Source of the DNA: a virus
Taxonomy: Duplodnaviria > Caudoviricetes
Reading direction: 5' to 3' (one strand)
Length of the DNA stretch: 46,444 nucleotides
Virus record (IMG/VR): IMGVR_UViG_3300027732_000038
Span: 1-46,444 of that record
Below, piece by piece: positions 12,838 to 26,962 of this stretch (position 1 is the stretch's first letter; every line of letters starts with the position of its first letter). The position numbers and the translations under genes are program-made. The notes beneath the pieces are model-generated. The model was given only the letters and a program-made list of their open reading frames with translations. It ran no database searches and was not told the DNA's origin.

Positions 12838-13067
12838 TGTCAGGTTTTGTTAAAATACAAAACAAGGATGGTCTTTTAAGAGATATGTCCAGTGGTGCAG
12901 TAATAAATACAAATAGAACTGATTATGAAAATTACTTACAAAGAAAAAACGCTAGTAAAGAATTACATCAACAAATTAAACAAAACTCTGATAAAATAGA
13001 AAAAATAGAATCAGATTTAGATGAGATAAAACATATGCTCACCATGCTTATTAAGGATAAACAATAA
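12837..13067 (+). CDS. Small conserved hypothetical protein with C-terminal coiled coil
   Basis: The start at 12837 is preferred because of TAATG coupling. LLRDMSSGAVINTN followed by a heptad-like C-terminus is typical of the small gene following VrlC-like genes. Confidence 0.7.
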   Translation: MSGFVKIQNKDGLLRDMSSGAVINTNRTDYENYLQRKNASKELHQQIKQNSDKIEKIESDLDEIKHMLTMLIKDKQ

Positions 13068-14281
13068 TGGCTGTAATCGTACTCCGCAGTGTTAAGGGTA
13101 GTCCGCTTTCGATTGCAGAAGCAGACGCTAACTTTAACAATTTAAATACTGAAGTTGGAACCAAACTAACAGCCACAGACTACACGGCAGGTGATGTTTT
13201 AACTAAAATTAAAACAGTTGATGGTGTTGGTTCTGGTTTAGACGCTGATTTACTAGATGGTTTAAATACCAGCAGTTCTGACACTTCAGGTAATACTGTT
13301 GTTATAAGAAATAGTGGTAATTTTTCCGCAAATACTATTACTGCTAATTTAGTTGGCAATATTACTGGTAATGTCACAGGTAACTTAACTGGATCTGTGA
13401 CTGGTAATGCAACCAATGTTAGTGGTGTTATTGCAATTAACAATGGTGGTACTGGTGCCACAACTGATACTGCAGCTAGAACTGCACTCGGTTTAGGAAC
13501 TATGGCAACGCAAGCTGCAAATAATGTTACTATTACTGGTGGATCAGTAACTCTAACTAGTGCCTTGGCTATCGCTTCTGGTGGTACTGCAGCTACATCT
13601 GTAAACCAAGCAAGAACTAACTTAGGTTTAGTTATTGGTTCTGATATTCAACCATTCTCTAATAACTTAACAGCAATTGCTGCTGTGACAACGCACGGGT
13701 TTTTTGTTAAGAACACTGCAGGAACTGCTCTAACAAGAAGCATTACAGCTGGAACTAATATTTCTATCACTGATGGTGATGGTGTTGCTGGTAATCCAAC
13801 AATTACTGGTTCTTCAAGTCCATCTGTAGATTATATTGTTAAGACTGGAACTAATGGTTCTGGTGATATTGGACAATCTGCAAACAGATTTGCTGTAATT
13901 TATGGTACTAGCACTTCTGCTCGATACGCTGACTTGGCAGAAAAATATACAACTGATCAAGAATACGATCCAGGAACAGTTATTGTGGTGGCATCTGCAG
14001 GTGATGCTGAGGGCACTGCTTCTTATACTACTGGTCAAAGAGTGCTTGGTGTTATTTCTACAAATCCAGCATTTATCATGAACGATGAATTAGATGGACA
14101 AGCAATTGCACTTCGTGGTCGTGTTCCAGTTAAAGTTGTTGGACCAATCCGTAAAGGACAAGCACTAATTTGCAATCAAGATGGCAAAGGTGTCCATGGT
14201 GATACCATTAATAGTTTTGCTATCTCTTTAGAGACAAATGAAGAATACTCTGTTAAACTTGTTGAATGTGTGATTTTATAA
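13067..14281 (+). CDS. Tail fibre protein with C-terminal intramolecular-chaperone-like domain
   Basis: N-terminal KGSPLSIAEADANFNNLN, GSGLDADLLDG and GGTGAT...ARTALGL fibre repeats. C-terminal ARYADLAEKY...GVISTNPAFIMN...ALRGRVPVKV resembles Peptidase_G2-like chaperone domains. Confidence 0.75.
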   Translation: MAVIVLRSVKGSPLSIAEADANFNNLNTEVGTKLTATDYTAGDVLTKIKTVDGVGSGLDADLLDGLNTSSSDTSGNTVVIRNSGNFSANTITANLVGNITGNVTGNLTGSVTGNATNVSGVIAINNGGTGATTDTAARTALGLGTMATQAANNVTITGGSVTLTSALAIASGGTAATSVNQARTNLGLVIGSDIQPFSNNLTAIAAVTTHGFFVKNTAGTALTRSITAGTNISITDGDGVAGNPTITGSSSPSVDYIVKTGTNGSGDIGQSANRFAVIYGTSTSARYADLAEKYTTDQEYDPGTVIVVASAGDAEGTASYTTGQRVLGVISTNPAFIMNDELDGQAIALRGRVPVKVVGPIRKGQALICNQDGKGVHGDTINSFAISLETNEEYSVKLVECVIL

Positions 14282-14287
14282 TGCTTT

Positions 14288-15367
14288 ATGACAACTCAAC
14301 CAATTGTCTTTCATAAGACAAATGTATCTCTTTCAGATATACTAATCCCAAAAGACTTAGTGGTCTATCTCAAGACCACTGAGACTTGCCAATTAAATTG
14401 CCAACACTGTTTTACAAATGGTACCAACGGCAAGAAGATATACTTTAATCCCCAGAATACAGTAGAGTGGTTTGAACGACTCCACGAAGAATGTCCATCT
14501 TTCAATGGTGGGAATATTACATTCCATGGAGGAGAACCATTCCTTGCTCCGCTAGACGACATGTACTATGTATGGGATAAGGTATCTAAACTATTCCCCA
14601 ATCTTAACTGGTCTTGTTCTACAAATCTTTGTTTCAATTTAACAGAAGATCATATGCAATTTTTCAGAACTGTTCTAAAGAATGGATTCTGCACTTCTTG
14701 GGATAAAGGTATTCGATTTGAAAATGATAAGCAAGAAAAACTCTGGCGAAAGAATCTGCAAACTGTAGTAGATGCTGGACATAATATCACTCTAAATATT
14801 AGTCTTAATAAACAACTAATGGAGATGAATACTACTGAGTTAGTTCTATGGCTCAATACTCTAGGTGTTAATTGGGTGCAGTTTGAACGATTAACTCACG
14901 ATGGTTCAGCTTTGGTAAATACTCATATATTTCCTGCAAATAAGGATCAAGACGACTGGTTTGTTAGAATGCATGAAACCTATCAGACAATAAAACCTAA
15001 ATATAAAGATGTCCTACTAGAAGGTGTGTATTCTTCTATAACTAAGGGAATACATGGTGGAGTTAGATGCAGAGATTGTGAACAGAAAATCTTTACAATC
15101 AATGCCGATGGAACTGTGGCTGGATGTCCAAATGCTGCAGTTGGTAATGGGTTTGGAGATATATCTCAGCCCATTAGAACTCTACTCTCCGCCAGAGGAA
15201 GAATAAATAACATTACATGCGAGGTAGAAAGAGATCCTCGTTGCTATACCTGTGATGTATTTGATATCTGTAATAGTGACTGCCATCAGTTAAGGTGGCA
15301 AGAAGATATCTGTGCAGCACCAAAAACACTAATGCAAAGGTTAAAGAATGACAACAGCTGGCGATAG
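14288..15367 (+). CDS. Radical SAM enzyme with SPASM domain (rSAM-1)
   Basis: CxxxCxxC (CQLNCQHC), FHGGEP, and C-terminal CRDC...INADGTVAGCP plus Cx2Cx5Cx3C (CYTCDVFDICNSDC)...C. Confidence 0.93.
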   Translation: MTTQPIVFHKTNVSLSDILIPKDLVVYLKTTETCQLNCQHCFTNGTNGKKIYFNPQNTVEWFERLHEECPSFNGGNITFHGGEPFLAPLDDMYYVWDKVSKLFPNLNWSCSTNLCFNLTEDHMQFFRTVLKNGFCTSWDKGIRFENDKQEKLWRKNLQTVVDAGHNITLNISLNKQLMEMNTTELVLWLNTLGVNWVQFERLTHDGSALVNTHIFPANKDQDDWFVRMHETYQTIKPKYKDVLLEGVYSSITKGIHGGVRCRDCEQKIFTINADGTVAGCPNAAVGNGFGDISQPIRTLLSARGRINNITCEVERDPRCYTCDVFDICNSDCHQLRWQEDICAAPKTLMQRLKNDNSWR

Positions 15368-15863
15368 TATAACAAAAGCAAATATTACTGCTTCTATGGA
15401 AGCACTCAAATCCTATAATAATAGTATTGTTTGGCACAGCGGTAATCAACCTTTTCAAACAAATATTACTGGTGGTGATGCTACTGGTTATGCAACTCAA
15501 AATTATGCGAGTGAAATCTCAGATACTACTATAACTGCTTCTACTATTACAACAAACTTTAGAGCATATGCTGTATTATTATCTAGAATTAGAAGCGTTC
15601 GTTTAAAAAAATGGTATCAAAATCAAGGTGATGTTAGATCTTCACTTCAGTCTGATGAAACGAATATTACTAATTTACAAGATAGTTATAAAGTAGATAT
15701 GACTGGTGGTCCAGCTTCTGATAATATTATTGATGCTTCTGATTTAGATGATTTTGTTAGTGCATTATCAACTGCAATTAATACTAATAGAACAAATACT
15801 GTTCTTATTGAAGAATTTTACTGCCACAGTAATTGTCATGGGTCTTGCCACGGAAGCATTTAA
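15348..15863 (+). CDS. Putative substrate/precursor protein with C-terminal Cys-His repeat (CHSN-CHGS-CHGS)
   Basis: 171 aa with a T/S/N/A/I-rich, Cys-free body. All three Cys lie in the last 13 residues. It overlaps rSAM-1 by 20 bp. The substrate role is inferred. Confidence 0.7.
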   Translation: MTTAGDSITKANITASMEALKSYNNSIVWHSGNQPFQTNITGGDATGYATQNYASEISDTTITASTITTNFRAYAVLLSRIRSVRLKKWYQNQGDVRSSLQSDETNITNLQDSYKVDMTGGPASDNIIDASDLDDFVSALSTAINTNRTNTVLIEEFYCHSNCHGSCHGSI

Positions 15864-16624
15864 TGTACACTATACCATTTGATTCTGAAACTTTAAGAAG
15901 TATTATAACAGGAGATATTAAATCACCTGAGATTGACTATACTAATTCAAAAATTAAAGGTAAAAACTTTATAACATATTTGAGTAATCTAAAATATGAA
16001 AACCTTAATATTGATTTCTCCAGCGTTTCTATCGAAGAGCGATATGAATTAGTTTGTGAATTTATTAAACACAATTCAACTTGTCATATTGAGCAGTTAG
16101 AAGCAACAATGGTTAAATGTTTGTTTCACTTTAAAGGATATAATTTATCTTTAGTCGATAAATCTGAAGATGATAAATCATTTTTAGGAAAATGTATTCT
16201 TTCAAATGAAGAAATAGAACACTTTGTAAAAACCAATAGTGATTTAATTAAACAGTTATGTGAATTGTTAGATGGTGTGTTACTATATGCAATTAAAAAT
16301 TTAACTGCATACAAAGAATCTGCTGGTGATTCTGTGACAAATAATACTATTATTGAAAAACAAGATATCGGTAAAACTTTTGTTAATCTATTCGATAATC
16401 CTACATTTAACTTTCACTATTACGGAACTCTGATAATTTTTGATAATATGAAATACTTTGATTACTATTTTGATAGACCAATTTATTCGGGTAAAACACT
16501 AATCAATTTTATATCATCACCAAATTGTTTTATATTTCCACTGTTAAAAATGATTTTAGATAAACAATTTACTCCAGAACAATTAAACTCAATAAGCAAA
16601 GAACTCGATGCTACACTTATTTAA
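15863..16624 (+). CDS. Hypothetical protein (cassette orphan A)
   Basis: Long ORF. The start at 15863 (MYTIPF) is preferred over 15833 because of the TAATG overlap with the previous stop. No recognisable motif. Confidence 0.75.
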   Translation: MYTIPFDSETLRSIITGDIKSPEIDYTNSKIKGKNFITYLSNLKYENLNIDFSSVSIEERYELVCEFIKHNSTCHIEQLEATMVKCLFHFKGYNLSLVDKSEDDKSFLGKCILSNEEIEHFVKTNSDLIKQLCELLDGVLLYAIKNLTAYKESAGDSVTNNTIIEKQDIGKTFVNLFDNPTFNFHYYGTLIIFDNMKYFDYYFDRPIYSGKTLINFISSPNCFIFPLLKMILDKQFTPEQLNSISKELDATLI

Positions 16625-17489
16625 TTCCTGTTATGTATATCCTATGGATCTATTTGATCCAACAAAAAATCATGTGGTGGTTGGAGCAGAGCATTTAAAT
16701 AAACCAACTATAACAAATAGTTTTTATTATACTAACTCAGTACCAAAAGATGCATTAGAACGATTCGATTCTTTCGAGTCTTTTGCAGCTAGCAATTTAT
16801 TAGAACCAGCGTTAAACAATAAAGACTTGTTTGTAATATATGCAGATAATGAAAATTTTATTAAGTTCTTTACAGCAAAATTAAAAACTCAAGTTGAATA
16901 TTTAACTAAAGAATTTTTCTTGGATGCTGCAAAATTGTTTGCAGTTCGTTTAAACACAAGAGCAAAATTAATACAATCCGAATCGATTAAAGTAAATATA
17001 AAAGTTTTAGCAGATATATTCATGGCATTAGAAGATATCCCTAATATTAATAAATTTAATGTATCACCAAATTGGGTTAGATATAATGCTGGTATTGAAT
17101 GGAAACTTGCAGCAGAAGATTATAGCACTATTGATAATGTTGTTAATCATTATGTGTATTCATTCTTTGAAGAAGCAAGAGCCAAATATCTTTCAAGAAA
17201 ATATCATGTAAATTCATGGGCAGTCGATCCAAACAATAAACAATTTGGAACAGTTTTTTCGATAAAACATTTATACATGGAAATGAGAAAGGAATTTAAT
17301 ACCTTTACAGATCCTACCATTTTAAAGTATTATGAATTAAACAATATTAGAGAAATGGTGAAAGATCCATTATTTTTATTGTTATTATCAGCTAATAAAA
17401 ATATGGGAGATAAAATTGATATTTGGTTGTTAAGATGGTTGTTGAAAATGCCAAAACAACAAATTCTCCAGATGGGTCTACTAACATGA
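16608..17489 (+). CDS. Hypothetical protein (cassette orphan B)
   Basis: 293-aa ORF overlapping both neighbours. Its N-terminus MLHLFNSCY resembles that of the next gene. Confidence 0.75.
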   Translation: MLHLFNSCYVYPMDLFDPTKNHVVVGAEHLNKPTITNSFYYTNSVPKDALERFDSFESFAASNLLEPALNNKDLFVIYADNENFIKFFTAKLKTQVEYLTKEFFLDAAKLFAVRLNTRAKLIQSESIKVNIKVLADIFMALEDIPNINKFNVSPNWVRYNAGIEWKLAAEDYSTIDNVVNHYVYSFFEEARAKYLSRKYHVNSWAVDPNNKQFGTVFSIKHLYMEMRKEFNTFTDPTILKYYELNNIREMVKDPLFLLLLSANKNMGDKIDIWLLRWLLKMPKQQILQMGLLT

Positions 17490-18472
17490 TTTTTTTATTC
17501 GACAACTGCTATCTCTCAACTACAAATCATATTGTAGAAAATTCTAAACAAATATGGATCGGCAATCATCCGAATCTCGACAAACTTGCATTTGATATTT
17601 ACAAATCCTATACTGATATTACACCAGCCAAATTAAATGAATTATTTGTAGATATTCATGAAAATCTCTCTACTGTAAAAACTATAATTTACTGCGATAT
17701 TGAATTTTTTCAATATGTATATTCAATTTTCTTTAATGGTATATTGAGTAAAGCTGGTGTTCTTGAAATGTATTCTTATGATAGATTAAAAGAGAACTTT
17801 GGTTTAGGCACGCATAATTATGGACTGCAAGTTACTGGCTTGCGAGAAATTAATATTGTTGAATTACCAGAAGAATTAGAGTGGACAAGATCAAGTTCAG
17901 AGTTTTCTGCTTCTTTACAGTATACAAGAGTTGAATTAGAATACGCTTCTGCTCTACAGGGAGATGCAGATTCTATGGCTTTTTGTATAGATCGTGTTAA
18001 TACAATGTATGATGGCTCACCTGGATTTTGGTTAAAATTTGCTGAACAAACTCTTCCAGCCATTATGACTGATGATCAGTATACAATTGAAAATTTAACT
18101 AATCCAGAATTTATTCAATCTTATCTAACTAAATTTGATATCAATGAACTGATGCCAGTCGATGACATTCATGATACAATCAAACAAATTTACGGATATG
18201 ACTATGGTAAACATTTCTTTACAGTAGTCAACAATACACCAGAATATGATGACATCGTTAATTCTATTAAAGGATTAACAAAAACACAGTTAGTTGAAGA
18301 TTACATACTCGATCCAGTTTTTGCATCTCAACATCAATTAGTATTCCCAAATCTTTCCAACTTTGATTCTGTTAATCCAATTTTTTGGAATGCTATTTTA
18401 CAGAACAAAGACAATACAGCATGGCTTATAAAGTATAAAGTGACACATGGAACTGATAATCAAACCAACTGA
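17486..18472 (+). CDS. Hypothetical protein (cassette orphan C), probable distant paralog of orphan B
   Basis: The start at 17486 (MIFLFDNCY) is supported by an ATGA overlap and by similarity to the orphan B N-terminus. Confidence 0.75.
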   Translation: MIFLFDNCYLSTTNHIVENSKQIWIGNHPNLDKLAFDIYKSYTDITPAKLNELFVDIHENLSTVKTIIYCDIEFFQYVYSIFFNGILSKAGVLEMYSYDRLKENFGLGTHNYGLQVTGLREINIVELPEELEWTRSSSEFSASLQYTRVELEYASALQGDADSMAFCIDRVNTMYDGSPGFWLKFAEQTLPAIMTDDQYTIENLTNPEFIQSYLTKFDINELMPVDDIHDTIKQIYGYDYGKHFFTVVNNTPEYDDIVNSIKGLTKTQLVEDYILDPVFASQHQLVFPNLSNFDSVNPIFWNAILQNKDNTAWLIKYKVTHGTDNQTN

Positions 18473-19499
18473 GTTATGTAATTTTAAGTGTTCATTTTGC
18501 TCCTCAACCAAATTAGTCGAAGACAAAGCAAGCACTCTTGACCTACAACATGTTTTTGACTTTCTAAAAAGATTCCCAAATACAAACACAATTATTGTCA
18601 ATGGTGGAGATCCATTGATGGTAAAACCAGAATACTATTTTGCAATTCTGGAGTATATTGAGGAACACAATCTCATAACAACAATAGGGTTAACGACTAA
18701 TCTTTGGGCATTCTATAAGAAACCAGAGATGTGGACACCTTTGTTTAAACATCCAAGAGTAGGAGTTACAACAAGTTTTCAATATGGATTTGGTCGTAAG
18801 ATTAACGATAACCGAGTATATACTGAAAAAGACTTTTGGAATGTTAGTGATTTATTTTTAAAAGAAATTGGTTATCGTCCAGGTTTTATTGCAGTTATCT
18901 CTGAAGAAAATGAAAAGCATGCAATTAAACATGTAGAGTTAGCCAAGAAGATGGATGTTCAATGTAAATTGAATTATGCTATGGCTTCTGGTGAACAGGA
19001 TAAACCATATCGCCTAAGTAAGATATATGAAGCATACATAGAAGTGTATGAGAAAGATCTTTGGCACTGGGAATTTAATACTAAACAGATGATGACTCGT
19101 CTGAATAATATTGCCAATGTATGTCCTCAAGCAAGAAATTGCGATGATCATATAAGAGCATTAAATCCAGAAGGTGATTATTATTCTTGTGGAGCCATGG
19201 GTGATGATAAAGAATATCCAATTAACTTTGTAAAGGAAGTTAAAGAAGGTGGGTTTATTACACCACTACAAAATGCTCCAGAGTTATATTCGCTAAAGGA
19301 TGAGTGTATCGGTTGTCCAATGTTTGCAATTTGTAATGGGTGTAAGAAAACAATTAAAGATTTAAAACACCATAATATGGTTGAAGAGCACTGTGTTCAT
19401 ATGAAACAGTTGGCTCCAAGAATTATTAAGATAAACAGTGAAACAGATTATGTTGAAGCCAGTCAAAAAATCCATAAAAATATCTTACTTAACAATTGA
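18447..19499 (+). CDS. Radical SAM enzyme with SPASM-like domain (rSAM-2)
   Basis: IKPTELCNFKCSFC (CxxxCxxC), NGGDPL, and C-terminal CPQARNC...NPEGDYYSCG plus CIGCPMFAICNGC...HC. Confidence 0.93.
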   Translation: MELIIKPTELCNFKCSFCSSTKLVEDKASTLDLQHVFDFLKRFPNTNTIIVNGGDPLMVKPEYYFAILEYIEEHNLITTIGLTTNLWAFYKKPEMWTPLFKHPRVGVTTSFQYGFGRKINDNRVYTEKDFWNVSDLFLKEIGYRPGFIAVISEENEKHAIKHVELAKKMDVQCKLNYAMASGEQDKPYRLSKIYEAYIEVYEKDLWHWEFNTKQMMTRLNNIANVCPQARNCDDHIRALNPEGDYYSCGAMGDDKEYPINFVKEVKEGGFITPLQNAPELYSLKDECIGCPMFAICNGCKKTIKDLKHHNMVEEHCVHMKQLAPRIIKINSETDYVEASQKIHKNILLNN

Positions 19500-21342
19500 G
19501 TTAAGGTCACCTGTTATTAGGTTACCAATTCACTGGTTAAACTTCAAGAACTATTATACTAAAAATGGTAGGTATCCGTCAAACATAAATTGGCAAGAAC
19601 CAGTACTAGATGTTGAGGGTATGAGTTTTGATGATATTGTAAATTATTACGATAAGCAAGATTCAGAAATATATTTGTTCTCCAGCTATGTTTGGAGCCA
19701 TATGGCAATTATGGCTATTGCAAAAGAAATCAAAGCCAGAAACCCAAAACGAATTATTGTAGTTGGTGGACCACACTTAGGTATAACACACAATAAATTA
19801 GACTGGTTCTTTAGTCATAAATTTGTCGATGCTATCTGTGAACCAACCAGTTATGGCGAGTGGTTTATTGAAGATATGCTTAATCAATATGTCGAAGGCG
19901 ATATTGATTGGAAGCAAGTAAGTTTCTCAATATTCCGAACTGGTCGTGGACCAACTCCAAGTAAAATTACATTTGAATTTCCTCAGGCATTAATTCCAGG
20001 AAATGAAGACATTGTTTACAAATGTAAAGATATTGCAATGGAAGCCAATGTACCTTTAGTTTTACCAATGGAATTGTCTCGTGGATGTCCTTATGCGTGC
20101 GTGTTCTGTGAATGGGGTGGTGGAATCGGTGGTAAGGTTATTCGTAAATCATTGGATATGATCAAACAAGATTTAGATTATATTCCTCAGTTTGGTATTG
20201 AGGGTGTTCAAATTGTAGATGCAAATTATGGAATCTTCAAAGAAGATGTTGATGTTTCTGAATACATTGAGCAGTCTAAAAATCTTTATGGATTACCAAG
20301 CAAAGTAGAATTGTTTGGTATAACTAAATCTAAACAAGAAGCCAGATGGGCAGTTATTGAGCCACTGGCTAGATGTGGTGCAGTAGATCGATATAAAATT
20401 AGTTTGCAATCAATAAGTCAAGAAGTTTTAAGAAACATAAAACGAACTGATATTCCAAGAGAACAAGATTTTCAGTTTGCAAGATATCTTGAAAATACTT
20501 ATGGTGTTCGTTCTGACATTGAGTTTATACTTGGACTTCCAGGTTATACCAAAGATGATTTTTATGATGAGATTGACCTTCAATATGAACATGGATATCA
20601 GTTAGAGCGATATATCTGGTTATTATTACCAGACTCTCCAGCCTTTGACCCAGAGTATAAAAAACAACATGGTATTAAAACTGCAAGAGTTTGTGTTGGT
20701 AAGTCTAGATTGAATAGCTACGAGTTTAATGATATTGATGAGTTCTCTAAATACCATATATCTGATGATCCTGTTTATATCTCAGATGTGGAGTTTGTCA
20801 CTAAAGCCAATGGATACACAGAAGAAGAATACACTGAATTTTTCTTTGTTAATTATTGGATAGTTTATAATAGACCTCTTTTTGACTTTACTAAAATAGT
20901 TATAGATGCAAATATCGTATCTGGTAAAATTAGCAGACCATCTATCTTGTTTAGACATTTATACGAAAAGGTTATGTCTAGCACTGACAATAAATACTTA
21001 TTGGCTATGAGGAATCTTAGTGATCAGATGCAAGAATTAGTCTCTGGTAATAGAAAAGAGATTGTAGATTTTAGAGAATATAATTTACCACATACAAATG
21101 TGTCTGCAAATTTAAGTTATATTTTTCAATCTTGTGCTGTAGTTTTTCAGGAAGACTATTTAAAATTCTTAGTAGAGTTGGCAGAACAATTAAATTTAGA
21201 TATTCCAGATTCGATATATGAAAATTGGACAGAACGAGTGGCTTCTTTAAAATTCTCGACTGCTCCAAAGTATGATAAATTCTATCAAATAAGAACTTTC
21301 TACGAAAACTTTATTAATGAGAAATATAGCACAGCTAGTTGA
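19450..21342 (+). CDS. Cobalamin (B12)-binding radical SAM enzyme, class B methyltransferase-like
   Basis: N-terminal B12-binding-type segment FSSYVWS...AKEIKARNP..IIVVGGPH, then ELSRGCPYACVFCEWGG, VDANYG, SLQS and FILGLPG. The start is ATG 19450 or GTG 19438. Confidence 0.88.
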   Translation: MLKPVKKSIKISYLTIELRSPVIRLPIHWLNFKNYYTKNGRYPSNINWQEPVLDVEGMSFDDIVNYYDKQDSEIYLFSSYVWSHMAIMAIAKEIKARNPKRIIVVGGPHLGITHNKLDWFFSHKFVDAICEPTSYGEWFIEDMLNQYVEGDIDWKQVSFSIFRTGRGPTPSKITFEFPQALIPGNEDIVYKCKDIAMEANVPLVLPMELSRGCPYACVFCEWGGGIGGKVIRKSLDMIKQDLDYIPQFGIEGVQIVDANYGIFKEDVDVSEYIEQSKNLYGLPSKVELFGITKSKQEARWAVIEPLARCGAVDRYKISLQSISQEVLRNIKRTDIPREQDFQFARYLENTYGVRSDIEFILGLPGYTKDDFYDEIDLQYEHGYQLERYIWLLLPDSPAFDPEYKKQHGIKTARVCVGKSRLNSYEFNDIDEFSKYHISDDPVYISDVEFVTKANGYTEEEYTEFFFVNYWIVYNRPLFDFTKIVIDANIVSGKISRPSILFRHLYEKVMSSTDNKYLLAMRNLSDQMQELVSGNRKEIVDFREYNLPHTNVSANLSYIFQSCAVVFQEDYLKFLVELAEQLNLDIPDSIYENWTERVASLKFSTAPKYDKFYQIRTFYENFINEKYSTAS

Positions 21343-22030
21343 ACAAGTAAATAAAATTCCTCATCTACCGTTGAATTTTAAATACGATGCTACAAGAATC
21401 GAACAAGAGATTCGTGAGTGCCCATTTCCATTAATGCCATATGCTGCAACAATGCAAGAGAACCATGGACATAGTAAAAGCAAATGGAATAATCTATCTT
21501 TGTTTAGTCACAATGGTGAGATTTTTTGTGATAGATTAGAAGGTGCTGGTGAAGGAGAGTTGGAAAGAATTTGGGGGCATTTCCATAAAACTGGTTTGTC
21601 TGAATATCTTTCCTACACATACGAAATAGTTGAACAATTAGGTGGCGGTAAGGCATTAGCTCGAATTGAAGAGATACATCCAGGAACTGTAATGGGCTGG
21701 CACAATCATGCCTTTGAATTGTATCACCCAGAAACTATGATGATTATCCAATTACCCATTACAGTACCAGATAAATTTAAGTATTCTGTAATAGGAAATA
21801 AAGAATATAGATTAACAGACTTTGGTAAACAAGTACCAAAGGTATATGAGGCAACTTATATTCCAGGAACTCCTGTAATCTTTAATGCTTTTCATTACCA
21901 TAATGTATTTAATTTTGATGAAGAAGGTGTTCGTCTAACTATTCGTTTCTTTGCAGATCTTAGAGACGACTCTGTTTATGACTTAGTTGCAGATGCAGTG
22001 AACTCTTATAATGGAGAGTACATTGAATAA
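21317..22030 (+). CDS. Cupin-fold / aspartyl-asparaginyl beta-hydroxylase-like oxygenase 1
   Basis: WNNLSLF, ARIEEIHPGTVMGWHNH, IQLPI and FNAFHYHNVFN...R match the layout of AspH-like double-stranded beta-helix proteins. Confidence 0.7.
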   Translation: MRNIAQLVEQVNKIPHLPLNFKYDATRIEQEIRECPFPLMPYAATMQENHGHSKSKWNNLSLFSHNGEIFCDRLEGAGEGELERIWGHFHKTGLSEYLSYTYEIVEQLGGGKALARIEEIHPGTVMGWHNHAFELYHPETMMIIQLPITVPDKFKYSVIGNKEYRLTDFGKQVPKVYEATYIPGTPVIFNAFHYHNVFNFDEEGVRLTIRFFADLRDDSVYDLVADAVNSYNGEYIE

Positions 22031-22712
22031 ATTAACTGAAATTGCTCACCTACCTCTACATATTGATTTTGATGCATCTTGTATTTTATCAGAAATTAAA
22101 AGTTTAGAACTAACCCCATACAATAGCTGGGAAGATATTAAATCTGATGCTGATATAGAGGAATCTTGGGATTCTATTGCTTTGTTTAGTATCAGCGGTA
22201 ATATCAATTCTGATGCAAAAGAACCATGGACAGGCGACTTTAAGGAAACTGATGCAATAAACAAGTGTCCTTATTTAAAGGAAGTTTTACTATCTTTGGG
22301 TGGCGGAGATTTATTGGCTAGGATTGAACGAATAAAACCCAATGGTTCTGCTGGATGGCATAGTCATGTATTAGAATCTAAACAACCAGAATGGATCTCA
22401 GTCTGGCAGTTACCCATCCAGATACCTAAAGAGTCTAAATTTAGTGTTATAAATTATATGGATTACAGGTGTTCTGATTTTAATAAACCAATACCAGTTT
22501 ATGAGGGAACTTATAAAGAAGGACAGGTTTATTGTTTTAATAGCCATCACTATCATAATGCTTTTAATTATAGCAATGAACCTATGATTATGGTTCGTTT
22601 TTATGTAGATTCTAGGAAACCTCAAACTAAGGATATTTTAGAGGCATCTATAAATAAGTATAGCGGAGACTATATGCAAACTTACGAACAGTATTGTAAT
22701 ACTCCTAAATAA
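22011..22712 (+). CDS. Cupin-fold / AspH-like oxygenase 2, paralog of the preceding gene
   Basis: WDSIALF, LGGGDLLARIERIKPNGSAGWHSH, QLPI, KFSVI..DYR..DF.K..P.VYE and FNSHHYHNAFN align end to end with 21317-22030. Confidence 0.7.
   Translation: MESTLNKLTEIAHLPLHIDFDASCILSEIKSLELTPYNSWEDIKSDADIEESWDSIALFSISGNINSDAKEPWTGDFKETDAINKCPYLKEVLLSLGGGDLLARIERIKPNGSAGWHSHVLESKQPEWISVWQLPIQIPKESKFSVINYMDYRCSDFNKPIPVYEGTYKEGQVYCFNSHHYHNAFNYSNEPMIMVRFYVDSRKPQTKDILEASINKYSGDYMQTYEQYCNTPK
22649..22656 (+). promoter_or_regulatory. Putative T4-type late promoter (TATAAATA)
   Basis: Exact consensus about 90 bp upstream of the fibre gene at 22747. Variants CTAAATA and AATAAATA also occur at 22705-22718. Confidence 0.55.
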
Positions 22713-22746: not shown

Positions 22747-23652
22747 ATGGCTTCAATTACAACTAGAGAGACTGGCACGACTGGCACAGGTGGTGTTACT
22801 AGGAAAAATTCCCCTCTAACAAATGCCGAAATTGATACTAACTTTATCAATTTAAACACTGATAAGTTAGAAGCATCATATACAGGTAATACTAATCTTG
22901 TCACTCTAGGTACAGTCACGACTGGTACTTGGAGTGCCACGACTATTGCTACTCTATATGGTGGAACTGGGTTAACCAGCTTTACTAATGGTGGAGCGGT
23001 TTACGCTACTAGCACTTCTGCTTTAACTACTGGAACTCTACCAGTCGCTTCTGGTGGCACTGGCATCTTCAACGGTATTAGTTCTGGTACACTTTTAATT
23101 GGTAATAGCAGTAATACATTTACTGCTGCAACTCTAACTGGCACTGCAAATAGAATCACGGTAACCAATGGTTCTGGTTCTATTACAATTTCTGCTCCAC
23201 AGGACATCGCAACGGGATCAAACCCACAGTTTGGTTCTTTGGGTATTGGTACTGCGTCATCGGGTACTGCTGGAGAAATTCGTGCAACAAATCAAATTAC
23301 TGCATATTACTCAGATGAACGATTAAAAGAAAATATAGAGACCATCACAAATGCCCTAGATAAAGTCGTTTCTCTTCGTGGTGTTACATACAATGCAAAT
23401 CAATTAGCAGAATCATTTGGATATACAAATAAAGAAAAACAAGTTGGTGTTCTTGCTGGAGATGTTCAAAGAGTTTTACCTGAAGCTGTAAAACCTGCAC
23501 CATTCGATTTAATTAGAATTGATGAGAACACAGAAATTTCTAGTTCAGGTGAAAACTATTTAACAGTGCAATATGAAAAATTAGTGCCACTGTTAATCGA
23601 AGCAATTAAAGAACTTAAAGCTGAAGTTGATGAACTTCGTGGGAGTAAATAA
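22747..23652 (+). CDS. Tail fibre protein with C-terminal Peptidase_S74-type intramolecular chaperone
   Basis: N-terminal RKNSPLTNAEIDTNFINLN, GGTG fibre repeats, cleavage-type motif YSDERLKENI and C-terminal YEKLVPLLIEAIKEL. Confidence 0.85.
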   Translation: MASITTRETGTTGTGGVTRKNSPLTNAEIDTNFINLNTDKLEASYTGNTNLVTLGTVTTGTWSATTIATLYGGTGLTSFTNGGAVYATSTSALTTGTLPVASGGTGIFNGISSGTLLIGNSSNTFTAATLTGTANRITVTNGSGSITISAPQDIATGSNPQFGSLGIGTASSGTAGEIRATNQITAYYSDERLKENIETITNALDKVVSLRGVTYNANQLAESFGYTNKEKQVGVLAGDVQRVLPEAVKPAPFDLIRIDENTEISSSGENYLTVQYEKLVPLLIEAIKELKAEVDELRGSK

Positions 23653-24839
23653 TGGCAGCTGGTATCGGAACAATTACGAGTGTAACTAATAGCACAACAG
23701 TAACTGGAAGCAGCACTTCCTTTACTTTATACCAAAGAGTTAATGGAACTTTATATAACTCAGGTGGAACAGTTATTGGTATTATCGCTTCTATTGCAAG
23801 CGACACATCATTAACTTTAACTGCAAATGCTGCAGTAGCTGTTACTGCAGCGTCTTACATTTACACTTCTCCTATTATTTTGGAAAGCGGTGCTTTATCT
23901 TTACCATTGGGTAATACTGACAATAGAGTTTCTGCTCTTGCTGGTGCGATAAGATATAATTCTCAGCGAGGTGGTTGGGAATATTCTGATGGAACTGACT
24001 GGCTTCTTCCAGGACAATTAGTTGCAACTGGTGGAACATTTAGTACTGCTGGTGGTTTTAACTACCATTTGTTTACGAGTTCTGGTACTTTGACAGTGTC
24101 TGCTGGAACAAAATCTGCTGAATTGCTTTTAGTTGCTGGTGGTGGTGGTGGAGGAACACAAGTTGGTGGTGGAGGTGGAGCAGGTGGATTGGTTTATAAT
24201 AGTGCATTTAGTCTTTCACCAGGAACTTATACCATAAATATTGGCGGTGCTGGTGCAGCGTCAACTAGTTCTAGTTCTTCTGGTGGATCTGGTGGTAATT
24301 CCACATGTACTAATGCGACCACAGCTATCGGTGGTGGTGGTGGTGGTAGTCATTCTAACAATGGTGTTTCCACTAGTGGTGGATCTGGTGGTGGTGGTGG
24401 TGGTGGAGTTAGTGGTGGTACAGGTGGTTCTGCTGGAACTGCTGGACAAGGTAATCCAGGTGGTGTTGGAGTTACTGGTAATTGGTCTGGTGGCGGTGGT
24501 GGCGGTGCTGGTGGCTCAGGGCAAAATGCTGGAACTGCTGGTGCAAATATTGGCGGAAATGGCGGTGTTGGATTACAATATACCCAATTTGCAGTAGCTG
24601 GTTCTCCAGCAGGATGGTATGCAGGTGGTGGTGGTGGATGTAGTAATGGTTCTACAGTCCCAGTAGGTGCTGGTGGAACAGGTGGCGGTGGTTCTGGTCA
24701 TAGTGATGTAACAACCGCACCAAATAAAAATGGTATTGTCAATACTGGTGGTGGGGGTGGTGGAATTCGAGATACTCCAAATCCTTACCTTGCTGGTGCT
24801 GGTGCTTCGGGAATCTGTATTATTAGATACGCACAATAA
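23652..24839 (+). CDS. Glycine-rich adhesin-like virion protein 1
   Basis: YHLFTSSG, LLVAGGGGGG, GGGGAGG, YAGGGGG, NTGGGGGG and C-terminal GASGICIIRY define a polyglycine-rich domain common in phage receptor-binding proteins. Confidence 0.75.
   Translation: MAAGIGTITSVTNSTTVTGSSTSFTLYQRVNGTLYNSGGTVIGIIASIASDTSLTLTANAAVAVTAASYIYTSPIILESGALSLPLGNTDNRVSALAGAIRYNSQRGGWEYSDGTDWLLPGQLVATGGTFSTAGGFNYHLFTSSGTLTVSAGTKSAELLLVAGGGGGGTQVGGGGGAGGLVYNSAFSLSPGTYTINIGGAGAASTSSSSSGGSGGNSTCTNATTAIGGGGGGSHSNNGVSTSGGSGGGGGGGVSGGTGGSAGTAGQGNPGGVGVTGNWSGGGGGGAGGSGQNAGTAGANIGGNGGVGLQYTQFAVAGSPAGWYAGGGGGCSNGSTVPVGAGGTGGGGSGHSDVTTAPNKNGIVNTGGGGGGIRDTPNPYLAGAGASGICIIRYAQ
24021..24086 (+). repeat. 66-bp direct repeat, copy 1 (other copies 26066-26131 and partial 25021-25058)
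   Basis: gttgcaactggtggaacatttagtactgctggtggttttaactaccatttgtttacgagttctggt recurs at 26066-26131 with one mismatch. A 38-bp internal part recurs exactly at 25021-25058. Confidence 0.9.
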
Positions 24840-24858
24840 GTATAATTAGGATAAAAAA

Positions 24859-25893
24859 ATGGCAACAACTGTATTAAGAGACACTGCTATTACTTTACCT
24901 GTTGGTACGAGTAGTGACAGACCAACAGGAACGATTGGCTTGTTCAGATATAATACTGATCGTCAATCGGTTGAAGTTTTCGATGGTAGTGCTTGGGTTG
25001 TACCAAATCAAGTAATTGCTACTGGTGGAACATTTAGTACTGCTGGTGGTTTTAACTATCATGTGTTTACATCATCTGGTAGTTTTGTTGTTACTTCTGG
25101 TTCAAAATCTGGTGAAGCACTGGTAGTCGCTGGCGGTGGTGGTGGTGGATTTCAAGTTGGTGGTGGAGGTGGCGCAGGTGGACTAGTATATGCATCATCG
25201 TTCAATATTATTCCAGGAACCTATACAGTTACTATTGGTGGTGCTGGAGCAGGTTCTCCACCTGGTTCTGGTGGTGGTTCTAATGGTGTCAATACTTCTT
25301 TAACAAATGTAACTACTGCCGTTGGTGGTGGTAGAGGTGGCAGTCATAGTGGTGGAACTACCACTAGTATACACACTAGTGGTGGATCTGGTGGTGGCGG
25401 AGCAGGTACAGATGCTAGCACCACACCTCCAGGTGGTGCAGGAACTCCAGGACAAGGAAATCCAGGTGGAATTGGTCGTGCAGGTGGTAGCAGTTGGGCA
25501 GGTGGCGGTGGCGGTGGTGCTGGTGGTGCTGGAGGAAATTCTCTTTCTGTTCAAGTTGGTGGTGCTGCAGGAGTTGGTTTGTTATACTCACAATTCTCAA
25601 CATGGGGAACTAGTAATCCAAACTCGTATACAACTGGTGGTGCTGTTCAAAATGGTGGTGGATATTTTGCTGGTGGTGGTGGCGGTGGTTGTTCTGCTTC
25701 TAATCAAGTAGATGGTGGTGCTGGTGGCGGTGGTCGTGGTTTTGGTGATCAATCTTTTAATAGTACCAATCATGGTGACGATGGTGCACCAAATACTGGC
25801 GGTGGTGGCGGTGGTGTTCGAGATGGTTCTCCTTCATACACTCGATCAGGCAATGGCGGATCTGGTATTGTAATTATTAGATATGCAAACTAA
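24859..25893 (+). CDS. Glycine-rich adhesin-like virion protein 2
   Basis: Paralog of its neighbours: LPVGTSSDRP..GLFRYNTD N-terminal module, Gly-rich domain and GGSGIVIIRY end. Confidence 0.75.
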   Translation: MATTVLRDTAITLPVGTSSDRPTGTIGLFRYNTDRQSVEVFDGSAWVVPNQVIATGGTFSTAGGFNYHVFTSSGSFVVTSGSKSGEALVVAGGGGGGFQVGGGGGAGGLVYASSFNIIPGTYTVTIGGAGAGSPPGSGGGSNGVNTSLTNVTTAVGGGRGGSHSGGTTTSIHTSGGSGGGGAGTDASTTPPGGAGTPGQGNPGGIGRAGGSSWAGGGGGGAGGAGGNSLSVQVGGAAGVGLLYSQFSTWGTSNPNSYTTGGAVQNGGGYFAGGGGGGCSASNQVDGGAGGGGRGFGDQSFNSTNHGDDGAPNTGGGGGGVRDGSPSYTRSGNGGSGIVIIRYAN

Positions 25894-25906
25894 GGAATAA
25901 GATAAT

Positions 25907-26962
25907 ATGTCAGCAAACTCTATATTAGCCGATGGCTATATTAAAATTCCTGTTGGAACTACTGCAGAAAGACCAACAGGGGTTACTGGTATGTTTAGAT
26001 ATAATAGTTCTCGTGGAGCAGTAGAGTGGTACACTGGAAATGAATGGATTATACCGAATCAACTTGTTGCAACTGGTGGAACACTTAGTACTGCTGGTGG
26101 TTTTAACTACCATTTGTTTACGAGTTCTGGTTCTTTTGTAGTAACAGCAGGAACAAAATCTGCTGAAGTGCTAATGGTTGCTGGCGGTGGTGGTGGTGGA
26201 TATCAAGTTGGCGGTGGTGGTGGCGCAGGTGGACTAGTATATGCATCAGCATTTAGTGCAGCACCAGGAACTTACACCATAAATATTGGCGGTGGTGGTA
26301 ATGGTGCTGCTGGCAGCGGACCAATTGGATCTAATGGTAGCAATTCTTCAATGACAAATATGACTACTGCTGTTGGTGGTGGTTGGGGTAATAACCATTC
26401 AGGAACAGGAAGTCCAACAACTGGAAATCCAGGTGGATCTGGTGGTGGTGGTGGCGGTAGAGATAACGGAAATAATAGTGGTGGATCAGGAACTGCTGGT
26501 CAAGGAAATCCAGGTGGAACTGGTGTAACAAGCAATTGGGCAGGTGGTGGTGGTGGCGGTGCAGGTGCTGCTGGATCTAATGGATCGCCAAATGCTGGTG
26601 GTCCAGGTGGTGTAGGATTATACTACTCAGGTTTTACTAACTTTGGAACTAGCAGTCCAAACTCATATTCTGCATCAGCAGGAACTGCCCTACAAAATGG
26701 TGGTGGTTACTTTGCTGGTGGTGGTGGTGGATCTCCAAATAGTCAAACCGATGCAGGTTCATTTTCAAATGGTGGTGCTGGTGGCGGTGGTCGTGGTTAT
26801 GCTAATAATGGGTTATTAATTGGTGGTTCTACTCACGGAGAAGATGGCGCACCAAATACTGGTGGTGGTGGTGGTGGAACACGAGATGTTTACGGTGGTA
26901 GTCCATACACAAGAGCAGGTAATGGTGGTTCAGGTGTTGTAATTATTAGATACACAAATTAA
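25907..26962 (+). CDS. Glycine-rich adhesin-like virion protein 3
   Basis: Third paralog: IPVGTTAERP..GMFRYNS module, Gly-rich domain and GGSGVVIIRY end. Confidence 0.75.
   Translation: MSANSILADGYIKIPVGTTAERPTGVTGMFRYNSSRGAVEWYTGNEWIIPNQLVATGGTLSTAGGFNYHLFTSSGSFVVTAGTKSAEVLMVAGGGGGGYQVGGGGGAGGLVYASAFSAAPGTYTINIGGGGNGAAGSGPIGSNGSNSSMTNMTTAVGGGWGNNHSGTGSPTTGNPGGSGGGGGGRDNGNNSGGSGTAGQGNPGGTGVTSNWAGGGGGGAGAAGSNGSPNAGGPGGVGLYYSGFTNFGTSSPNSYSASAGTALQNGGGYFAGGGGGSPNSQTDAGSFSNGGAGGGGRGYANNGLLIGGSTHGEDGAPNTGGGGGGTRDVYGGSPYTRAGNGGSGVVIIRYTN

Follow-up and report, generated by a model that had tools for sequence, protein, structure and literature searches.

A Cys-His-tailed protein encoded among phage fibre genes is a candidate substrate of neighbouring radical SAM/SPASM enzymes

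Why would a phage encode, among the genes for its particle, a small protein ending in three Cys-His units and set within a row of radical SAM genes? The locus lies in a 46,444-nt stretch of viral DNA (IMG/VR record IMGVR_UViG_3300027732_000038), all of which was analysed and is called the window here. PHROG annotation assigns genes in the window to baseplate wedges, fibres, neck, terminase, sheath, tube and portal, the structural set of a T4-like phage, and the portal is about 54% identical to the portals of Pelagibacter phage Mosig and Methylophilales phage Melnitz. Nine genes on the + strand, successive ones overlapping, lie between a 404-aa fibre gene (13067-14281, +) and an S74-chaperone fibre gene (22747-23652). 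In order, they encode a radical SAM/SPASM enzyme (rSAM-1; 14288-15367), the CHxx-tailed protein (15348-15863), orphan A (phrog_20767; 253 aa from an ATG overlapping the preceding stop; 15863-16624), orphan B (293 aa; 16608-17489), orphan C (328 aa from an ATG at 17486; 17486-18472), a second radical SAM/SPASM enzyme (rSAM-2; 18447-19499), a B12-binding, methyltransferase-like radical SAM protein (19438-21342) and two related oxygenase-like proteins (21317-22712), the second with a weak Asp/Asn beta-hydroxylase/cupin match. The oxygenase-like and B12-type genes are accessory, the latter being present in 7/7 loci of the window's clade and 38/114 others.

Beyond the cassette, the S74-chaperone fibre is followed by three glycine-rich (PF21722) paralogues (22747-26962 in all), with a T4 late-promoter motif ahead at 22649, an arrangement resembling a fibre and adhesin set. 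The late promoter TATAAATA occurs twice in the window (22649 and 27698), fewer times than expected by chance, and no copy stands ahead of the cassette. Short contigs matching the cassette were found in four lake or freshwater metatranscriptomes, one of them with a 151-nt exact piece inside the gene for the tailed protein; these are contigs only and not proof of transcription.

The tail proved to be as originally described. The 171-aa ORF (15348-15863, +) ends in CHxx units of period 4, its body is free of Cys, and its only three Cys (residues 159, 163 and 167) all lie in the tail. Bases 15822-15857 (+) encode CHSNCHGSCHGS, read as CHSN-CHGS-CHGS, with the same varied codons as noted earlier; Ile and a stop overlapping the next ATG follow, without the R-x-R-R end of most relatives. 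The unmodified C-terminal GluC peptide, FYCHSNCHGSCHGSI, has a calculated monoisotopic mass of 1650.61. A search returned 277 homologues, and in all 120 of those listed there are three Cys, all in the tail. The end CHxxCHxxCHxS[IL] is kept in 146 of 147 proteins examined; the sole exception stops after CHSN, on a 731-bp contig. That the repeat is conserved at the protein level was borne out by 38 distinct genes, in which pN/pS was 0.03 for the tail (pS 0.75, pN 0.022) and 0.46 for the body (pS 0.50, pN 0.23). Besides the final Ser, Cys and His are the only invariant tail residues. The tail is thus a real, strongly selected feature of a widespread cassette. Atypical CX3CH haem attachment is another reading that we take to be conceivable; no signal peptide is evident.

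The body had been described as fibre-like, which holds for composition only. The fraction of Thr, Ser, Asn, Ala and Ile is 0.50, like that of four neighbouring virion proteins (0.42-0.49); it is 0.29-0.35 in the two SPASM enzymes, orphan A and the terminase. When triples of 18-mers were scored, the proposed weak internal repeat came out on top, although 8 of 40 shuffled versions did as well; each copy stands ahead of a predicted helix, so the copies look like helix-cap motifs. The AlphaFold2 model (mean pLDDT 71), made as a monomer, is compact, with three main helices, a long beta-hairpin and a poorly defined tail, so that a folded domain is predicted where a leader or fibre had been proposed. 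Its best Z against 48,161 solved chains was 3.5 (VIA); the chain concerned, Milano baseplate 8fqc, was rejected as tied with unrelated rows. No solved relative was returned by a PDB sequence search or by Foldseek against the PDB at E 0.001. Pfam and NCBIfam were likewise blank for the protein (NCBIfam at E 0.01, as also for orphans A-C), and one unnamed PHROG (35144) matches its C-terminus. Thirteen longer relatives (379-609 aa) all end in CHxx units and carry inserts, with glycine-rich matches in five and weak PA14 matches in two; one of the thirteen has just two units and the terminus RGRWW. Across most of the window's clade rSAM-1 is 94-97% identical, and the tailed protein about 63-80% identical in the same loci. 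The suggestion that the tail is a receptor-recognition element did not stand up well: the tail is near-constant between phages that infect Ralstonia, Pseudomonas, Agrobacterium or Sinorhizobium, whereas the body differs, so a part for the tail in setting receptor specificity is unlikely.

Searched by tblastn, rSAM-2 and orphan A each matched the same 15 cultured-phage records, comprising Ralstonia and Burkholderia Chiangmaivirus-type phages, Pseudomonas DT01, Agrobacterium Atu_ph07 and Sinorhizobium Phosso. In each of five regions inspected, a protein ending (CHxx)3-S/A-R-x-R-R comes immediately after rSAM-1. A degenerate pattern for that end located at least 121 viral loci and 29 genome loci; seven of the latter were discarded as having no real tail, and 15 of the 22 with true terminal tails carry Bdellovibrionota-type titles. 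A profile grown from the window's clade with the tail removed reached 94 of 132 full-length proteins, including gp170 of Atu_ph07, and none of the shuffled controls. A separate tail-less profile search returned mostly the close clade, and the tail-less body alignment held no conserved stretch usable as a scan query.

Loci were also retrieved with the enzymes alone, which avoids the circularity of searching by tail pattern; 80 of 370 and 80 of 396 were retained. Among those with enough flank, the strict tail was present in 45/51 and 44/46 and variant tails in 4 and 2 more (not dereplicated), the tailed protein being absent from the fetched stretch in two of the 51. Orphan A occurred in all 84 loci with 3 kb on either side. 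In 76 of these a same-strand radical SAM gene was identified by profile, and in the other eight divergent CX3CX2C ORFs sit beside the substrate gene; wherever the flank suffices, homologues always have radical SAM neighbours, in keeping with the original prediction. Orphan A, the most constant partner, has a confident, mostly helical model (pLDDT 90) for which Foldseek gave no PDB match and a best Atlas score of 0.85, to an unnamed entry; it is likely a scaffold or chaperone. Orphans B and C are distant paralogues of one family, present in 97/121 loci, and rSAM-2 is 49-59% identical to its jumbo-phage orthologues.

Several loci depart from the common plan. Larger cassettes (L245:13154-14506; L044:1774-3312) extend the tailoring chemistry with a tryptophan-halogenase-family gene, a JmjC/cupin gene, a weak glycosyltransferase-8 match and several 2OG-Fe(II) oxygenases. 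In a subfamily of seven loci, two tandem 124-140 aa CHxx proteins follow a G2-ended fibre beside several divergent radical SAM-like genes, with collagen repeats in one locus (L136). One 151-kb contig holds two separate cassettes (L098, L107), and deep-branching versions of rSAM-2 occur in L124 and in L069, where a 434-aa ORF has four CHxx units.

No description of the cassette or its maturation step was found in the literature searched, most subscription journals being outside its coverage. In the searchable text of Iyer et al. 2021 (PMC7824862) the term "radical" occurs 0 times, and the accessible parts of three genome papers merely list the enzymes (PMC11898562, PMC8066314, PMC5468394). The radical SAM cluster of RP12/RP31, as given in the available part of PMC5468394, was set aside; it was not among the rSAM-2 and orphan A tblastn matches and is annotated differently.

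The window's clade forms one group with support 100/100 in an rSAM-2 tree (42 rows thinned from 117). Its tails end S-[IL]-stop, and the stop overlaps the start of orphan A in 38/38 genes. All seven distinct members with enough flank have only radical SAM families 0, 1 and B12, whereas at least one of three further families occurs in 113/114 R-x-R-R loci; five partial clade records (22-41% complete) have exactly three radical SAM genes each. On sequence evidence this is a derived, minimal version in which the R-x-R-R end appears to have been lost together with the three extra families. The co-loss, a single event in one clade and in partial genomes, suggests a division of labour, and the missing families would plausibly act on the R-x-R-R end. 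That end is unlikely to be a mere by-product of a ribosome-binding site, since it is still there in relatives whose next gene begins 9-12 bases downstream. The clade, which includes contigs of 160-192 kb, offers the smallest gene set for reconstitution.

Both SPASM enzymes retain CX3CX2C and the auxiliary-cluster Cys, in 32 (rSAM-1) and 25 (rSAM-2) aligned sequences; each has eight auxiliary Cys that align with anSME, invariant in rSAM-2. Their TIGR04085 scores (24.8 and 25.3 bits) lie slightly below the cut-off of 27. An N-terminal RRE would not fit in either, the core beginning at residue 25 (rSAM-1) or 2 (rSAM-2). The best family matches, though weak, were to DarE (33 bits)/DarW and DynA (53 bits), and ChlB was the best PDB match of the rSAM-1 profile. 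These 33-53 bits stand against curated cut-offs of 450-650, so the chemistry cannot be read from family membership.

In 251 tail units from enzyme-anchored loci the fourth position is Ser in 203, Asn in 39, Ala in 6, Gln in 2, Lys in 1 and never Gly, Thr or Val, the filter used for the count also fixing the last Ser of S[IL]-type tails. The third position includes Gly (49), Thr (9) and Val (2). A Fisher p of 1e-7 overstates the case because the units are related by descent. With no Gly or beta-branched residue at the fourth position, abstraction of a C-beta hydrogen there is suggested. Two natural variants are also instructive: in one protein His is replaced by Phe (CHYSCFTSSCHFSRGRR), and in two distinct proteins the third Cys is lost and His-Ser-Ser retained (CHxxCHSSHSSRNRR). 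These events are few, and they favour aromatic-X-Ser as the working unit. Triceptides, in the accessible text of PMC11499958, carry a link from an aromatic ring, His included, to C-beta within aromatic-X-X, and HtkB accepts a His-to-Phe change. The original idea that H-x-S/N is joined by a triceptide-type cross-link thus gains indirect support from the permitted residues and the two variants, but every maturase match falls below its cut-off.

The same residues bear on a thioether, also raised originally from the CxxxC spacing, in which each Cys sulphur would be linked to C-beta of the Ser or Asn three residues on, as in ranthipeptides, leaving His as a metal ligand. The period of 4 is real, Cys varies no more than His does, and the C-beta rule would suit a thioether just as well; among annotated ESM Atlas clusters, the one nearest to the substrate is a Cxxx-repeat target (score 0.81), taken only as a lead. 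CteB, however, as listed in the available part of PMC10288494, has a His363-Gln364 pair, which is missing here (C280-P-N in rSAM-1, C248-G-A in rSAM-2). With that pair lacking and eight auxiliary Cys in both enzymes, aligned to anSME, CteB-type chemistry is less supported. Further, 81% of acceptor positions are Ser, and the third Cys is dispensed with in the two proteins noted above. At Ser, an S-C-beta(OH) linkage would be a labile hemithioacetal. We regard the thioether as unlikely.

Equally improbable is that the protein is a virion component with an unmodified tail that binds metal (Zn, Fe, Cu or an Fe-S cluster), the enzymes acting on some other substrate such as the upstream fibre. The invariance of Cys, His and the last Ser alone would suit such a site, and a fibre gene adjoins most cassettes; yet it accounts neither for the lack of Gly and Thr at the fourth position nor for the His-to-Phe variant, and the class of the upstream gene differs between phage groups while tail and enzymes remain together.

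The upstream gene itself was surveyed. Leaving cassette genes aside, the first gene upstream encodes a fibre of the 404-aa class in 97 of 140 distinct viral loci and something else in the other 43. Four members of the class show a Peptidase_G2 likeness at the fibre end, below cut-off (E 2e-5 to 3e-3). In the window's copy, a candidate docking partner for the tailed protein, the C-terminus (13850-14281; ADLAE ... GRVPV) matches Peptidase_G2 and the phi29 pre-neck appendage weakly. From their sequences, these fibre ends probably represent a family of self-cleaving chaperones lacking a proper model and common upstream of the cassette. An S74 fibre gene sits next to the cassette in five of 12 bacterial loci mapped, and in one of the five it has a Pfam pilin methylation motif. 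In five Bdellovibrionota loci (L033, L037, L038, L044, L050) a gene beside the cassette encodes a protein of 345-413 aa that starts like a pilin and finishes with an S74 chaperone; in four of them it is accompanied by a second protein, of 184-209 aa and ending GRHWVxVK, and the pair may form a pilus-anchored fibre.

Is the tailed protein part of the particle? For the window's own phage there is sequence alone, and the evidence comes from a distant homologue in a cultured phage. In the accessible part of the Atu_ph07 virion proteome (Attai et al. 2018, PMC6102473), gp170 is covered to 35% by 8 peptides; it appears in bands 1-9 and peaks in band 1, the top of the gel. The products gp165-169, 171 and 172, the enzymes among them, are absent from the proteome table available there, and that table is silent on whether tail peptides of gp170 were detected. 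The preparation was PEG-purified and also lists a RecA-like protein and ribonucleotide reductase. Among viral models, a Foldseek search with the 171-aa protein also matched a protein of 296 aa from Atu_ph07 (probability 0.87, E 0.013), taken to be gp170 by its length. With a distant relative in the particles of a cultured phage, the 171-aa protein is likely a virion component, as had been supposed.

The gel also bears on whether tails are cross-linked between chains, into a covalent oligomer or to another virion protein. Among the 41 proteins of 25-45 kDa with at least 3 peptides in the part of the table available, gp170 (31.9 kDa) is alone in peaking in bands 1-3; two other proteins, with 1-2 peptides each, also peak in band 1. 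The listed loading buffer contained no reductant, so disulphides or aggregation could account for its high position. For gp176, the upstream fibre, the peak lies in band 4 rather than band 1, so it is not mostly tied to gp170. Cross-linking between chains seems a slightly poorer prospect than the thioether or the bare metal site.

Least probable of all, in our estimate, is that the body is a true leader or carrier from which the modified tail is cut as a small RiPP directed at the host or competing phages. The tail is core-like, C-terminal and modelled with low confidence, relatives carry a battery of tailoring enzymes, and the cassette occurs in bacterial genomes. Against this, no protease or transporter is annotated in the window's cassette, a homologue is found in virions, and the long relatives have adhesin-type inserts.

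The favoured reading is of a tail matured on a particle protein. That it is enzymatically modified there is quite probable. The fuller reading has a probability of about one half: the protein would be a small virion component associated with the fibre, and the two radical SAM/SPASM enzymes would cross-link its tail into three-residue rings joining the His ring to C-beta of Ser or Asn. In this scheme, orphans A, B and C would present the folded body to the RRE-less enzymes, each enzyme would abstract the C-beta hydrogen at the fourth residue of a unit, and the rings would form before assembly. The stiffened tail would leave three Cys free for metal or disulphides and, through them, the protein may be locked onto the fibre or into oligomers. 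The tail would then be the constant anchor and the variable body the part displayed.

More tentatively still, unrelated lineages of large phages and predatory bacteria may share a portable kit for introducing RiPP-type cross-links into a folded surface protein; the product would be a Cys-His anchor, rigid and possibly loaded with metal, capping attachment fibres that a chaperone has processed. The pilin-like S74 fibre genes of some Bdellovibrionota suggest a shared device for attacking Gram-negative cells. If so, post-translational radical chemistry would be a step in the assembly of virions and predator fibres, the window's clade would define the minimal kit for (CHxx)3 (two SPASM enzymes and the orphans), and the three missing radical SAM families would be assigned to the R-x-R-R end. 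So far, radical SAM peptide maturases are known for making bacterial natural products and, in one recent case, a defence effector; for such chemistry, maturation of a particle protein by phage-encoded enzymes would be a new role. It would also explain the function-less radical SAM clusters listed in the available text of jumbo-phage genome papers (PMC8066314, PMC11898562). The cultured phages Atu_ph07 and Phosso carry the cassette.

Compared with known systems, the cassette works like a RiPP maturation system, yet reaches no named family's cut-off. T-even phages have gp37/gp38-type fibre-tip pairs, in which a small protein is encoded behind a fibre with a chaperone-like end. The small gene here likewise stands behind a chaperone-ended fibre, and some relatives have glycine-rich domains; no sequence or fold match to a solved adhesin was found, however (PDB, Foldseek, VIA), and we know of no gp38 that requires radical SAM enzymes. 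With anSME, which acts on a protein and not a peptide, the enzymes share the radical SAM/SPASM class and eight aligned auxiliary Cys, but TIGR03942 scored 19 bits against 349 and the cassette has no sulfatase. The anSME target motif, (C/S)xPxR, is missing from the CHxx tail. The CXXX-repeat peptide system (TIGR04115, PF27846) and the ranthipeptides (CteB, PapB) likewise place a Cys at every fourth residue beside a radical SAM/SPASM gene. Here, in contrast, there are three units only, with His invariant, and the enzymes have eight auxiliary Cys without His-Gln; scores stayed below the cut-offs (TIGR04115 16.5/350 bits, PapB 20.2/340 bits).

The triceptides and His cyclophanes (HtkB, HaaB, YhhB, ChlB; accessible text of PMC11499958) share SPASM enzymes and an aromatic-X-X motif with a C-beta at the third residue. 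The tail conforms, having a C-beta hydrogen at X3 throughout (Gly 0/251), and the darobactin and dynobactin maturases DarE, DarW and DynA are, with ChlB, the best weak matches. Named 3-CyFE maturase models all scored below cut-off (YhhB 22.8/445, FxsB 17.2/370, AmcB 22.4/425 bits). The substrate here, unlike theirs, is a folded protein of 124-609 aa and not a short precursor, a Cys precedes each motif, two or more enzymes act with orphan partners, and the cross-link is only predicted. The HXS antiphage system, in the accessible part of PMC13128918, is also alike in gene content, with a His-Xaa-Ser repeat protein (HxsA), two radical SAM enzymes (HxsB, HxsC) and an accessory protein (HxsD). The best HxsC match scored 30.7 bits against a cut-off of 267.9, HxsB was outside the best 25 rows, and no protein of the HxsA or HxsD families was found among the substrate and orphans A-C (NCBIfam at E 0.01; Pfam). 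H-G-S nevertheless occurs twice in the window's tail, and His-x-Ser accounts for 203 of 251 units, albeit with Cys as a spacer. In contrast to HXS, the units described here carry Cys, sit at the C-terminus and belong to a protein of the phage itself.
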